Below are positions 2,135 to 5,200 of a DNA stretch of 26,660 nucleotides, piece after piece (positions within the stretch are counted from its first letter, which is position 1; the number at the start of each line of letters is the position of its first letter). Both the position numbers and the translations under genes were made by a program. This DNA is from a virus, in UHGV virus genome UHGV-0256785. One strand, 5' to 3'. The notes under the pieces are model-generated. The model was given only the letters and a program-made list of their open reading frames with translations, did no database searches and was not told the DNA's origin.

Positions 2135-2699
2135 ATGACAACTCAAATCTCTGTTGAAACTCTCTCCCCGATCACTCATAACCAGATTCCTGTAATTACC
2201 ACTGAACTTTTGGCGCAGCTTTATGGCACCGAAATTCTGAATATCCAGGTTAACTTCACCAGAAACAAAGAGCGTTTTGTCGCAGGAAAGCACTTTTTTA
2301 AAGCAGCGGGTGAGGAATTAAAAAAAATTGCGACTTACTTTAAGTAAGTCACAAAATCCCATCTCTCCCAAAACCCGCTCCCTCATTCTCTGGACAGAAC
2401 GAGGCGCAGCCCGTCACGCCAAAATGCTCGAGACCGATCAGGCGTGGGATGTGTTCGAAAAACTGGAAGACTGTTATTTCAGCCAGAAACAGCCACCAGC
2501 AGCACAAAACTCCCCCACCGAAAATGATGGATGCGCATTACTGATCCACTTCGATAAACACGGTCAGGTCGACTTCACGGAAAAAGTACCCGCCGATGCG
2601 ATGGTATGCACTCTGGAACGGTTTAAATTTTATCTGGAACAACGCGGCTGGATCGTTGCCCGTAAAGAGCAGCTGGTGGAACGACTGATGCGGCTTTAA
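2135..2699 (+). pseudogene. ORF6N-domain (antirepressor-like DNA-binding) gene split into two frames (2135..2347 and 2328..2699) at an A8 homopolymer; pseudogene, sequencing error or slippage site
   Basis: First ORF ends 6 codons after the A8 run at 2320-2327; the second frame opens inside the same run and continues the domain (LTLSKSQNPISPKTRSLILWTERGAARHAKM); removing one A fuses them into a single ~188 aa protein. Confidence 0.55.
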
Positions 2700-2776
2700 A
2701 AATTTTCCCCGAACGCTTTACGATCGTAAAAAGTTGAATATCCTGTTAAGAGTGGTTACTACGCCACACAGCTTAA

Positions 2777-2800
2777 ACCCGCCGATGAGCGGGTTTTTTT
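2777..2800 (+). terminator. intrinsic terminator downstream of the ORF6N gene
   Basis: Stem ACCCGC (2777-2782) / GCGGGT (2789-2794), loop CGATGA, T7 run 2794-2800. Confidence 0.7.
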
Positions 2801-2923
2801 GTGCCCGAAAAGCGGTACAGGACGTTAAATGCGCTGGTGGTTGCGAATACCGGTCTTTCAGCTTGCTGGCTTTTTAGACAAGAGTTATTGGTATGTCACG
2901 TTAACCAGAAAAGGAAAAAAGAC

Positions 2924-3121
2924 ATGCTAAAACAGCAGGATATGACCGAAACCGCCAGAGTGGTGTTTAATGAATTAAGTGTCACCGAACCAGCGACCGT
3001 CGGGGAAATTGCGCAGAATACTTACCTTTCACGCGAACGCTGCCAGTTAATACTGACCCAGCTTGTTATGGCGGGTCTGGCAGATTATCAGTTCGGTTGT
3101 TACAGACGCCTTCCTCAGTGA
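2924..3121 (+). CDS. small (65 aa) putative winged-helix DNA-binding protein; function unknown
   Basis: ATG at 2924 preceded by AAAAGGAAAAAAGAC; the longer track ORF from 2801 would read through the upstream terminator, so the internal start is preferred; followed by its own terminator. Confidence 0.5.
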   Translation: MLKQQDMTETARVVFNELSVTEPATVGEIAQNTYLSRERCQLILTQLVMAGLADYQFGCYRRLPQ

Positions 3122-3131
3122 AGGCTTTTTT
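3108..3131 (+). terminator. intrinsic terminator overlapping the stop of the 65 aa gene
   Basis: Stem GCCTT (3108-3112) / AAGGC (3121-3125), 8 nt loop, T6 run 3126-3131. Confidence 0.5.
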
Positions 3132-3271
3132 ATTTGTGGTAATGGGCGGCTGGTGGGTGTTAGCGGCACCTGCCAGCCATCTGCTCATGCGTTGGGGTCA
3201 CAAGCAAACCTCAGGCCCATCTGCTTTGCGCAAAAGCAGAATGAGCCTATCAGAGAAGTGCTTATTGATCT

Positions 3272-4318
3272 ATGGCTAATACTGTAAAAATATCCAGTTG
3301 TGAGTTAATCAACGCTGATTGCCTGGAATTTATCCAGACCTTACCGGAAAACTCTGTCGATCTGATAGTCACAGACCCGCCATACTTTAAAGTGAAGCCC
3401 GAGGGCTGGGATAACCAGTGGAAGGGCGACGATGATTACCTGAAATGGCTGGACCAGTGTCTGGCGCAATTCTGGCGGGTACTGAAGCCTGCCGGAAGTC
3501 TTTACCTGTTCTGTGGTCATCGCCTGGCATCTGATATCGAAATCATGATGCGTGAACGCTTTAATGTGCTGAACCACATTATCTGGGCGAAGCCGTCCGG
3601 GCGCTGGAACGGATGCAACAAGGAAAGCCTGCGGGTGTATTTCCCGGCAACAGAACGCATTCTGTTTGCAGAACATTATCAGGGGCCATACCAGCCCAAA
3701 AATGACGGCTATGCGGCAAAGGGGCGTGAACTAAAACAGCACGTCATGGCCCCGCTGATTTCTTACTTTCGTGATGCGCGTGAATCACTGGGAATAACGT
3801 CAAAACAGATAGCGGAAGCCACCGGAAAGAAAAACATGGCTTCGCACTGGTTTGGTATCAGTCAGTGGCAGTTGCCGAACGAAGGCGATTATCTGAAATT
3901 ACAGGCGTTGTTTGCGCGTGTTGCAGCAGAAAAACATCAGCGCGGTGAGCTGGAAAAGCCACATCACCAGCTGGTCAGCACATACAGTGAACTGAACCGG
4001 CAATATGCCAGTCTGCTGGATGAGTACAAATCCCTGCGGCGTTATTTTTCCGTATCGGCTGCCGTTCCGTATACGGATGTCTGGACGCACAAGCCTGTGC
4101 AGTATTACCCCGGCAAACATCCCTGTGAGAAACCGGCGGATATGTTGCGTCAGATAATTACTGCCAGCAGTCGTCCGGGAGATTTGGTTGCTGATTTTTT
4201 TATGGGGTCGGGGTCAACAATAAAAGCAGCATTATCGCTGGGAAGGCGTGCAATAGGTGTGGAACTGGAAGAAGATAGATTTAACCAGACTGTAATTGAA
4301 ATAAAAAATAATCGTTAA
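3272..4318 (+). CDS. orphan DNA methyltransferase, beta-class amino-MTase (N6-adenine or N4-cytosine), with a ~100 aa insertion between the catalytic and AdoMet-binding motifs
   Basis: DPPY motif near the N-terminus (LIVTDPPYF) and FxGxG motif near the C-terminus (FFMGSGST), i.e. motif IV before motif I; 348 aa; no restriction endonuclease partner ORF anywhere in the window. Confidence 0.85.
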   Translation: MANTVKISSCELINADCLEFIQTLPENSVDLIVTDPPYFKVKPEGWDNQWKGDDDYLKWLDQCLAQFWRVLKPAGSLYLFCGHRLASDIEIMMRERFNVLNHIIWAKPSGRWNGCNKESLRVYFPATERILFAEHYQGPYQPKNDGYAAKGRELKQHVMAPLISYFRDARESLGITSKQIAEATGKKNMASHWFGISQWQLPNEGDYLKLQALFARVAAEKHQRGELEKPHHQLVSTYSELNRQYASLLDEYKSLRRYFSVSAAVPYTDVWTHKPVQYYPGKHPCEKPADMLRQIITASSRPGDLVADFFMGSGSTIKAALSLGRRAIGVELEEDRFNQTVIEIKNNR

Positions 4319-4397
4319 ATGTGTGTATCATTATTTCTGTATTTCATGAATAATAGAAATTTATACATATATTTACGAATATTGACACAGTTTTTAA

Positions 4398-4425
4398 TTG
4401 AAAAAGTATCTGTCCTCATTAATAT
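4398..4425 (+). promoter_or_regulatory. candidate sigma70 promoter for the tRNA pair, in a very AT-rich stretch
   Basis: TTGAAA at 4398-4403, 16 bp spacer, TAATAT at 4420-4425; alternative -35 TTGACA at 4382-4387; ~60 nt upstream of the first tRNA. Confidence 0.3.
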
Positions 4426-4486
4426 TCCCTGCGGTTCCAAGGGAGATGTAAAGCGCGGTCATTTTTATTTTTCCTGAGGAACCAAT

Positions 4487-4562
4487 GCCGACTTAGCTCA
4501 GCAGGTAGAGCAACTGACTTGTAATCAGTAGGTCACCAGTTCGATTCCGGTAGTCGGCACCA
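4487..4562 (+). tRNA. tRNA-Thr, anticodon UGU (76 nt, CCA encoded)
   Basis: Cloverleaf read by hand: acceptor GCCGACT/AGTCGGC, D-arm GCTCAGCAGGTAGAGC, anticodon stem ACTGA/TCAGT with loop CTTGTAA (TGT at 4520-4522), T-loop TTCGATT, 3' ACCA; one A-C mismatch in the T-stem. Confidence 0.75.
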
Positions 4563-4565
4563 TAT

Positions 4566-4640
4566 GCGGGTATCGTATAATGGCTATTACCTCAGCCTTC
4601 CAAGCTGATGATGCGGGTTCGATTCCCGCTACCCGCTCCA
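4566..4640 (+). tRNA. tRNA-Gly, anticodon UCC (75 nt, CCA encoded)
   Basis: Acceptor GCGGGTA/TACCCGC, anticodon stem TCAGC/GCTGA with loop CTTCCAA, T-arm GCGGG-TTCGATT-CCCGC, 3' TCCA; matches from memory the host glyT-type tRNA-Gly(UCC) except in the acceptor stem. Confidence 0.85.
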
Positions 4641-5001
4641 GCATTTGAAATAAGCCTTATTGTATTGCAGCACTGGCGTATTTTTTATTACGTGGGAGCA
4701 GGTTGTTTTAAGAGACATTCTGTTTTCTGGCTATGATTTGAGGCTAGGTTAGCCTCAGTGCTGATTTTTTTGCGACAGCAGAATGGTGCATTGCTGGTGG
4801 AGATTTTGTATTTCCTGGCAGGGTCGGTGATGCATCATTCTGGTGTTGTAAATAACACCACCGGGGTGTTCCTCAGAGCGAGGGTGGTTAAAAGAGTCGG
4901 TTTAACGGGAAATCACAGTATTCATACAGGACGGAATACTTCGGGAGGCACCCGACACCTCGGTTTTATTACAATTAAGAATGTATTTCTTGCATTGACC
5001 A

Positions 5002-5026
5002 ACCGCCGTATCCGGCGGTTTTTTTT
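5002..5026 (+). terminator. strong intrinsic terminator in the tRNA-to-lysis spacer
   Basis: Stem ACCGCCG (5002-5008) / CGGCGGT (5013-5019), loop TATC, T8 run. Confidence 0.7.
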
Positions 5027-5159
5027 ATTCAGAATTCCGTTTCTTTATGGTTCGCTGCGGCGGGCCTTTTTCATATCTGCGCTTTACTCAACGTGCATTG
5101 AATCTGAATACATCACATAAAAGACATCGGTGGATGCCTTCGACGGGGTGTTTTATTAC

Positions 5160-5181
5160 GGGCCGCTGGCGGCCCTTTTTT
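5160..5181 (+). terminator. intrinsic terminator immediately upstream of the first lysis gene
   Basis: Stem GGGCCG (5160-5165) / CGGCCC (5170-5175), loop CTGG, T6 run 5176-5181; ends 8 nt before the GGAG of the next gene. Confidence 0.65.
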
Positions 5182-5200
5182 ATTTACAGGAGAAAAAAGT

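Follow-up and report, generated by a model that had tools for sequence, protein, structure and literature searches.

Probable mosaic organization of the region between the Q antiterminator and the lysis genes in a toxin-less lambdoid prophage resembling Shiga toxin phages

The analyzed window, a stretch of 26,660 nt from the virus genome UHGV-0256785, is a lambdoid prophage in which left to right is the direction of late transcription. The slot considered here extends from the gene of the Q antiterminator (Q21 family; 1458..1853, plus strand; Pfam PF06530, E=2.5e-52) at its left border to the first lysis gene, coding for a holin (5201..5590, plus strand; Pfam Phage_holin_8, E=5.4e-22), at its right border. 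Q is a distant match to the Q21 structures 6jnx/6p18 and shares 79% amino acid identity with Q of VT2-Sakai/Sp5; from position 5201 on, two holins and an M15 endolysin are followed by terminase and morphogenesis genes. Between the borders lie an antirepressor cassette, the late promoter PR', the genes of a winged-helix protein and of an orphan DNA methyltransferase, two transfer RNA (tRNA) genes, and a structured trailer RNA. We consider it probable that four cassettes, each mobile on its own, make up this interval as a mosaic, constituting the Q-to-lysis region of a toxin-less lambdoid prophage of the Shiga toxin (Stx) phage type: the antirepressor cassette (1854–2716), the late promoter with the first late genes (2717–4318), the tRNA cassette, and an empty cargo junction. 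Shiga toxin release is governed by this slot, hence related prophages can be interpreted properly only if its promoter and terminators are mapped correctly.

The antirepressor cassette (1854–2716, 863 bp) sits exactly between the Q stop codon (1853) and the −35 hexamer of the late promoter. Judged by its sequence, it is of the P1 immI / Gifsy-1 isrK type, with an isrK-like RNA, a C4-like antisense RNA, and an ORF6N-domain gene, all on the plus strand. It begins with a predicted sigma-70 promoter (TTGACC, 18 nt, TATATT; 1858..1887; 10/12 consensus matches), 5 nt past the Q stop codon. This is followed by the isrK-like short RNA (1894..1971; Rfam RF01394, 69.1 bits with a gathering score of 50), which has an a1 target loop UUAGGAAC at 1919–1926 and its own terminator at 1950–1971, and is overlapped by a marginal match to c4-a1b1 (1881–1934; Rfam RF03163, 47.8 bits with a gathering score of 46.7). 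The C4-like antisense RNA (1997..2081; Rfam RF01695, 65.7 bits with a gathering score of 45) contains the recognition segments GUUCCUAA (2052–2059) and UCACCACC (2071–2078). The downstream targets a2 (UUAGGAAC, 2085–2092) and b2 (GGUGGUGA, 2098–2105), read from the sequence, occupy 2085..2105, just before the ribosome-binding site of the ORF6N gene.

The segment GUUCCUAA is complementary to UUAGGAAC at both the upstream (1919–1926) and the downstream (2085–2092) site. The three sites change jointly between phages: the window and TUM9757 have UUAGGAAC / GUUCCUAA / UUAGGAAC, while VT2-Sakai and phage 2851 have UUGGCG / CGCCAA / UUGGCG (alignment A1). This joint change is strong evidence, from comparison, that the RNA switch works and occurs in distinct specificities. 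The energies of whole-length duplexes between the C4-like RNA and its targets, cognate versus non-cognate (−52.6 versus −42.4 and −52.9 versus −48.7 kcal/mol), separate the two kinds poorly, and the case for the switch therefore rests on the covariation in the alignment. In VT2-Sakai and phage 2851 the cassette is located between ninE and roi in the nin region, approximately 2.5 kb upstream of Q. The homology begins within the spacer of the promoter at 1858–1887, and the −10 hexamer and everything downstream are kept (alignment A1); since the nin-region copies include the unit from the −10 hexamer onward, it carries its own promoter and is mobile within phage genomes.

The C4-like RNA is overlapped by a small open reading frame (ORF) of 27 codons (2001..2084, plus strand) that has two ATGs at a spacing of 12 nt; its stop codon overlaps the ATG of a 10-codon ORF (2081–2113), which contains the a2 and b2 targets. 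Counted from the predicted start of the RNA, the two ATGs lie at +107 and +119, the positions of the AUGs of Gifsy-1 orf45 (PMC4825925), hence the 27-codon ORF may be the counterpart of orf45. The ORF6N-domain (Ant-like) gene (2135..2699, plus strand; Pfam ORF6N PF10543, E=1.8e-13) is frameshifted: it is split into 2135–2347 and 2328–2699 by a +1 shift in the A8 run at 2320–2327, and is thus not intact in the window. With one A removed, it encodes a protein of 187 amino acids with a full-length match to phrog_2379 'anti-repressor' (E=3e-90). The copy in strain Z1323CEC0001, 99.6% identical, has A7 and an unbroken ORF of 187 amino acids, and the intact A7 allele of locus L018 has one other base different from the window. 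Weak matches of the ORF6N protein to PDC-S05 were reported by PADLOC.

The A8 run is located directly 5' of a 12-bp hairpin (2320–2354 overall), which on the minus strand resembles a terminator; homopolymers of this length are also prone to sequencing error and transcriptional slippage. Programmed frameshifting at the run and the hairpin was considered and judged far-fetched, given that the near-identical A7 allele encodes an intact protein.

The Gifsy-1 locus has the gene order antQ, isrK, orf45, anrP, lysis genes; a single promoter there yields a short RNA and a read-through mRNA, which together govern the translation of a small ORF and of the antirepressor AnrP, the inducer of the prophage (PMC4825925). 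Similar to the isrK-orf45-anrP unit of Gifsy-1 and to immI of P1/P7 (C4, icd, ant), the window cassette has its own predicted promoter, a short RNA with target sites, a C4-type RNA flanked by matching sites, and a small ORF followed by the antirepressor gene; as in Gifsy-1, it lies between Q and the lysis genes. It differs from both in the specificity type of the recognition sequence (UUAGGAAC), in the small ORF, 27 codons long and separated from the antirepressor start by 50 nt, and in the predicted antirepressor itself, a 187-amino-acid ORF6N protein that is frameshifted in the window. By this likeness, the constitutive-type promoter of the cassette would produce the short isrK-like RNA and, upon read-through, an mRNA containing the C4-like antisense RNA, which may pair with the matching sites before and after itself and gate translation of the small ORF and the ORF6N antirepressor.

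The late promoter PR' is assigned to 2717..2744 on the plus strand (−35 TTTACG, 16 nt, −10 TATCCT) by homology to PR' of Sp5, which was mapped by differential RNA sequencing (dRNA-seq). The late transcript start region (2750..2803, plus strand) comprises a predicted start at ~2750–2751, a −10-like hexamer AAGAGT (2748–2753), a 4-bp hairpin (2752–2767), and the first terminator after PR', t1 (2775–2803, plus strand; fold −13.4 kcal/mol, z=−3.3). In Photorhabdus, Providencia, and locus L014, whose Q proteins are 67–75% identical to that of the window, one element corresponding to window positions 2716–2803 lies directly after the Q stop codon; VT2-Sakai/Sp5 also has the PR' element there. The shared order of this post-Q element is CTTTACGATCGTAAAA, the −10 hexamer, GATAAGAGTG, the small hairpin, and the terminator. 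Both hairpins after the PR' start keep their pairing by compensatory changes across genera (alignment A3). For Sp5, Sy et al. mapped the PR' start and the 3' end of the terminator tR' 258 nt apart by dRNA-seq and Term-seq (PMC7547250); on the Sakai chromosome, the distance from the predicted PR' start to the end of the tR' T-run is likewise 258 nt, both positions being offset by 141 nt from the published coordinates. The search of genome contigs with Q yielded 8 loci, which sufficed to locate PR' and were too few for statistics.

A Q-dependent late regulatory cassette has been described as a Q gene, PR', a sigma-dependent pause element, and a terminator (bioRxiv 10.1101/651190). The window contains a gene of the Q family, a PR' homologous to a mapped one, and an intrinsic terminator before the late genes; AAGAGT (2748–2753), conserved across relatives, is a candidate −10-like pause element. 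The PR' of the window is not adjacent to Q, being separated from it by the 863-bp cassette, whereas the two are adjacent in Sp5, Photorhabdus, and Providencia. Since PR' is located downstream of the antirepressor cassette, the ORF6N gene should lie outside the late transcript.

A 14-bp palindrome TTTACGATCGTAAA (2717–2730), occurring once in the window, covers the −35 hexamer of PR'. It is kept, with at most its center changed, among phages whose Q proteins are 66–84% identical, and different repeats accompany two Q proteins that are 46–47% identical. The center is ATCG in the window, Sp5, Photorhabdus, Providencia, and L014, and TACG in O157 and DLP12-like prophages; phiP27 and 1720a-02, with the 46–47% identical Q, have different short palindromes at PR'. 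This co-variation with Q makes the palindrome the best candidate for the Q-binding element, differing in form from the described Q-binding element of Q21, which is a direct repeat. The possibility that the palindrome serves as an operator for the winged-helix protein was rejected, as it is present in Sp5, Providencia, and L014, in which no winged-helix gene is found.

The stretch separating the Q stop codon from PR' is a cargo site of its own, with four contents seen, whose genes would be Q-independent; in the window it holds the antirepressor cassette. In O157 prophages (L007, 3882–4925) it holds a CPBP/Rce1-like protease; in a DLP12-like prophage (L010, 8388–11240), IS5 and the nmpC porin on the minus strand; in phiP27 (L001, 2148–3490), a GIY-YIG/T5orf172 gene. 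Two cargo positions are hence to be distinguished, the Q-to-PR' gap with Q-independent expression, and the region downstream of PR', which would be silent until induction.

The predicted first gene of the late operon (2924..3121, plus strand) encodes a winged-helix protein of 65 amino acids, with a confident AlphaFold model (pLDDT, predicted local distance difference test, 91) of helix-helix-helix-strand-strand layout. It is 100% identical to the proteins of phiP27 and TUM9757, matches that of 1720a-02 at 63/63 positions, and is 42% identical to that of Photorhabdus. It matches phrog_331, a family of unknown function; a sequence search of the PDB gave nothing meaningful, and Foldseek returned generic winged-helix domains only. 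The next gene (3272..4318, plus strand; PF01555, E=8.8e-44) codes for an orphan beta-class N6-adenine DNA methyltransferase of the M.EcoGII family. It is 86% identical over its full length to M.EcoGII, whose sequence was taken from a machine-read table in the supplement of PMC11551740 and contains a few reading errors, and also 86% identical to the enzyme of 1720a-02, described as very similar to M.EcoGII by Murray et al. (PMC5778455). The motifs TDPPYF (residues 34–39) and FMGSGST (residues 310–316) are in the beta-class order (DPPY, target-recognition domain, FxGxG), the same as in M.EcoGII (Murray et al., 2018), which, like the window enzyme, is prophage-borne and lacks a restriction partner. 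PADLOC identified a generic type II methyltransferase, with no further defense-system context and no restriction partner seen. NCBIfam gave no match above the cut-off for the winged-helix protein, the repaired ORF6N protein, the methyltransferase, or Q. The winged-helix protein is invariant even among phages in which the methyltransferases diverge by as much as 14%, and the two are co-inherited as far as Photorhabdus.

M.EcoGII of E. coli O104:H4 methylates adenine in any context, in DNA and RNA, and is harmful when expressed constitutively; M.EcoGII and M.EcoGI are silent in the lysogen, and M.EcoGII was supposed by the authors to be switched on at excision (PMC5778455). In the window, the promoter scan detected no promoter of the methyltransferase's own, and the gene lies behind PR', t1, and t2 (3108..3131, plus strand; fold −8.9 kcal/mol, z=−3.1), the latter overlapping the stop codon of the winged-helix gene. 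This arrangement therefore suggests a concrete mechanism for silence in the lysogen. A literature search linking EcoGII to late expression or anti-restriction gave nothing relevant, and no paper was found that places this family behind PR'.

Further downstream, ARAGORN and Rfam identify tRNA-Thr(UGU) (4487–4562, plus strand; Rfam 72.2 bits) and tRNA-Gly(UCC) (4566–4640, plus strand; Rfam 65.6 bits). They are preceded by a promoter-like site (TTGAAA, 16 nt, TAATAT; 4398..4425, plus strand), a consensus match only, situated in an AT-rich spacer. In Sp5, a separate tRNA transcription start was mapped at the equivalent position (PMC7547250), and the tRNAs of the window are probably also driven by their own promoter.

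The tRNA genes are followed by a conserved structured trailer RNA of ~390 nt (about 4641..5030, plus strand), with a minimum free energy z-score of −6.7. It contains a long hairpin (4769–4852), an STnc100-like 3' half (4835–5030), and a weak terminator (4738–4772, plus strand), and ends at a strong terminator (5001–5028, plus strand). When six sequences are aligned, pairing is kept in 95% of the cells, and the number of compensatory pairs is 14, compared with 5.5±1.8 in shuffles and 1–6 in slid controls. The 3' half scores 28.6 bits (E=9e-5 in a 221-nt search) against STnc100 (Rfam RF02076), below the gathering score of 47; the STnc100 core CGGGAGGCACCCGACACC and the terminator align with the trailer RNA, which may be regarded as a sub-threshold relative of STnc100 in its 3' half. 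In Sp5, STnc100 is located directly after stx2B. The region 4641–5200 is thus more than a spacer with terminators, as it includes a conserved structured RNA.

No toxin gene is present between PR' and the lysis genes: the mechanical ORFs of at least 40 amino acids in 4641–5200 (4608–4736, 4758–5120, 5047–5208, and 5130–5411) are all unsupported, and the region matches a toxin-free intergenic region of SerU-LTIIb. The 120-amino-acid mechanical ORF 4758–5120 was set aside as a gene, because the region behaves as a structured RNA. In TUM9757, genes for TerB, DUF3927, DUF4145, and a hypothetical protein are found between the matches to 5001–5082 and 5107–5250, and in phiP27 the homology to the window resumes at 5107, after stx2e. 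As the homology of relatives breaks there around inserted genes, 5082..5107 is interpreted as an empty cargo junction.

Terminators are overrepresented in this part of the slot. Region 2700–5200 contains 10 terminator-like sites, compared with 2.7±1.7 in shuffles, and seven of the ten are on the plus strand; the fold energies of six plus-strand hairpins range from −8.9 to −13.4 kcal/mol, with z from −2.2 to −3.9 for five of the six. In addition to t1, t2, and the weak and the strong site of the trailer, intrinsic terminators are found at 5049..5071 (plus strand; fold −12.0 kcal/mol, z=−3.1) and at 5160..5181 (plus strand; fold −12.6 kcal/mol, z=−2.2), the latter within the leader of the holin gene, whose start codon follows after 20 nt. 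The plus-strand terminators of the initial annotation are recovered by the scan, which has sites at 2775, 3108, 4738 (weak), 5001, 5049, and 5160, and its internal terminator 2777–2800 turns out to be the first one after PR'. Since several intrinsic terminators precede the lysis genes, late expression should need antitermination.

The initial annotation had described 2135–5200 as a Q-dependent block of accessory genes between the late promoter with its terminator and the lysis genes. This placement does not hold for the first 600 bases, as the promoter and terminator before 2135 belong to the antirepressor unit, upstream of PR'. Q dependence is consistent with the terminators before the lysis genes, with the exception of the ORF6N gene, which is outside the Q-dependent transcript, in a separate unit that has its own promoter and antisense-RNA control. 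The listed genes themselves are all present: the ORF6N-domain ORF at 2135, with its frame split; the orphan methyltransferase at 3272–4318; both tRNAs; and the small DNA-binding protein, identified as the winged-helix protein, its length being 65 amino acids from the ATG at 2924 rather than those of the 106-amino-acid mechanical ORF. The suggestion that these genes act as one module is contradicted by their distribution among 5426 complete E. coli genomes. The PR'/winged-helix/methyltransferase part is found in 2859 genomes (2480 with at least 80% coverage), the antirepressor cassette in 1267 (116), and the tRNA trailer in 349 (33), and the whole block reaches at least 80% coverage in 10 genomes. 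The distributions differ by orders of magnitude, and each part is also found without the others: in L018 the methyltransferase is followed directly by the holin; in L020 a DUF1133 antiterminator is followed directly by tRNAs and the trailer, without the methyltransferase; in O157 an AraC-type gene comes after the winged-helix gene. Only the winged-helix/methyltransferase pair regularly travels together.

A related arrangement is seen in O157:H7 prophages with a related Q (L007/L008, 5138–6185), where the winged-helix gene is frameshifted and an AraC-type helix-turn-helix protein replaces the methyltransferase, followed by tRNA-Ile/Arg/Arg and an STnc100 copy without stx.

Stx phages (Sp5/933W, phiP27, 1720a-02) have in this slot the order Q, PR', tR', tRNAs, stxAB, small RNA, and lysis genes. 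phiP27 shares with the window the winged-helix gene (100% amino acid identity), the methyltransferase (93%), tRNAs, and the homologous holin, second holin, and M15 endolysin, with stx2e placed after the tRNAs and before the holin; in 1720a-02, stx2 follows the pair of winged-helix and methyltransferase genes. As had been proposed, this is hence the slot where related phages carry their toxin, stx2e and stx2 being at the corresponding place. SerU-LTIIb has the methyltransferase, tRNAs, trailer, and holin in common with the window. The likeness to Sp5 consists in the same-family Q, the same PR' element, and the position of the STnc100-type RNA, corresponding to that after stx2B in Sp5; in the window, too, the tRNAs precede the toxin position. 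Unlike the Stx phages, the window has no toxin gene, its tRNAs are Thr/Gly and not Ile/Arg/Arg, and its Q and PR' are set apart by the inserted antirepressor cassette. Sp5 differs in having the StxS region where the window has the winged-helix gene and the methyltransferase, of which only a 3' relic is left. This suggests that a stretch encoding StxS replaced these genes in the Sp5 lineage. The relic was observed in VT2-Sakai (L005) at 10299–10391, just after tR', with 68% amino acid identity over residues 316–346. Compared with lambda 6S RNA and StxS, short RNAs made in lysogens from PR' to tR', the window likewise has a promoter behind Q and then a terminator, and a short RNA is predicted without Q; in contrast, its first terminator is ~50 nt past the start, a protein-coding gene precedes the second terminator, and the StxS sequence is absent. 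The contents of the slot are ordinary mosaic cargo, every cassette being of an already known kind, hence the slot can be read as a toxin-less member of the Stx-phage late-region architecture.

In the mechanism that we propose for the late part, RNA polymerase starting at PR' would stop at t1 and t2 unless loaded with Q, for which the likely site is the palindrome over the −35 hexamer; the Q-modified polymerase would go on to transcribe both the winged-helix gene and that of the M.EcoGII-family enzyme. The methylase, presumably toxic to growing cells, would be made only after induction, and would then methylate adenines of the progeny DNA broadly before packaging, possibly protecting it from many restriction systems in the next host. 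The tRNA cassette, with its own predicted promoter, would supply tRNA-Thr(UGU) and tRNA-Gly(UCC) and end in the structured STnc100-like RNA; the terminators at 5001, 5049, and 5160 would precede the holin leader and the holin.

Several observations weigh against this interpretation. A simple promoter scan misses PR', giving only 8/12 consensus matches, and the assignment of PR' therefore rests on homology. In Sp5, transcription continues past the t1 hairpin even when Q is absent, ending only 258 nt further on, which makes the efficiency of t1 uncertain. An isrK-type promoter directly follows Q in Gifsy-1, in Symbiopectobacterium (L016), and in the window, so some Q action there is possible. 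The A8 frameshift could be a homopolymer sequencing error. Non-specific methylation is a property of M.EcoGII itself, and we infer it for the 86%-identical enzyme of the window. Finally, the E. coli usage of ACA and GGA is roughly 7–8 per 1000 codons; in the phage genes these cognate codons of tRNA-Thr and tRNA-Gly have frequencies of 12.1 and 11.7 per 1000, respectively. As this enrichment is only ~1.5-fold, it lends weak support to a role of the tRNAs in codon supply.

The adjacency of Q and isrK underlies two alternative schemes. If the promoter at 1858–1887 and the terminator at 1950–1971 were PR' and tR', 2135–5200 would be one Q-dependent transcript and its genes one module; the strength of this promoter, its start 5 nt after the Q stop codon, the terminator that follows, the same order of Q and isrK in Gifsy-1, and the isrK-like sequence directly after Q in L016 all fit such an arrangement. 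We nevertheless hold it to be decidedly improbable, because the −10 hexamer and the downstream RNA are conserved in copies 2.5 kb upstream of Q, in phages where PR' is mapped elsewhere, the Q-associated palindrome and promoter are at 2717 and not at 1858, and the parts are distributed very differently among genomes. Alternatively, both promoters might respond to Q, which would suppress the isrK terminator, so that induction would raise the antirepressor in a feed-forward loop, as outlined for AntQ/AnrP of Gifsy-1. The recurrence of the Q-isrK adjacency in Salmonella, E. coli, and Symbiopectobacterium is in line with this, as is the broad action of over-expressed AntQ on termination (PMC4825925); still, neither the palindrome nor a related repeat is present at 1858–1887, the nin-region cassette works without an adjacent Q, and the antirepressor gene is frameshifted in the window, which makes this scheme unlikely.

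The other two alternatives concern the role of the genes. The methyltransferase could be a sequence-specific orphan that regulates the lysogen epigenetically or shields it from a particular host restriction system, instead of a late, non-specific anti-restriction enzyme, given that PADLOC and Pfam class it as an ordinary type II beta-class enzyme, and that 14% of its residues differ from M.EcoGII, several of them in the central target-recognition segment. The silence of M.EcoGI and M.EcoGII in the lysogen, the non-specificity of M.EcoGII and its harm upon constitutive expression, and the two terminators that separate the gene, with no detectable promoter, from PR' render this very improbable. 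Decay of the region into prophage debris that no longer contributes to phage or host would account for the frameshifted antirepressor, the empty cargo junction, and the frameshifted winged-helix gene of O157; it is highly implausible in view of the intact and highly conserved winged-helix and methyltransferase ORFs, the RNA elements that keep pairing by compensatory changes, and the complete lysis and morphogenesis modules that follow.

The mosaic with a Q-dependent part downstream of PR' remains the preferred reading. The position of M.EcoGII-type enzymes behind PR' would provide a simple reason for their silence in the lysogen, and predicts broadly adenine-methylated progeny DNA in very many E. 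coli prophages, with consequences for the host range of the phages and for how methylomes recorded after induction are to be understood. Worth noting are the M.EcoGII family at the head of a predicted Q-dependent operon, the invariant winged-helix companion, and the structured trailer RNA. A further-reaching proposal, which we regard as doubtful, is that the winged-helix protein is a dedicated partner of the methylase, for instance one that holds its activity back, guides it to DNA under replication or packaging, or controls the late transcript, that the trailer is an undescribed STnc100-related regulatory RNA, and that together they make the head of the late operon a conserved anti-restriction and host-manipulation unit in about half of E. 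coli genomes.

Outside the slot, the left end of the window contains genes for DUF968 (44–1093) and RusA (1106–1477). Two small ORFs of unknown function (6520–6729 and 6853–7068) are found after the lysis genes and ahead of the gene for the small terminase subunit; the small ORFs of this region (6520–7110) end at a strong bidirectional terminator (7088–7108; −14.3 kcal/mol, z=−4.4).

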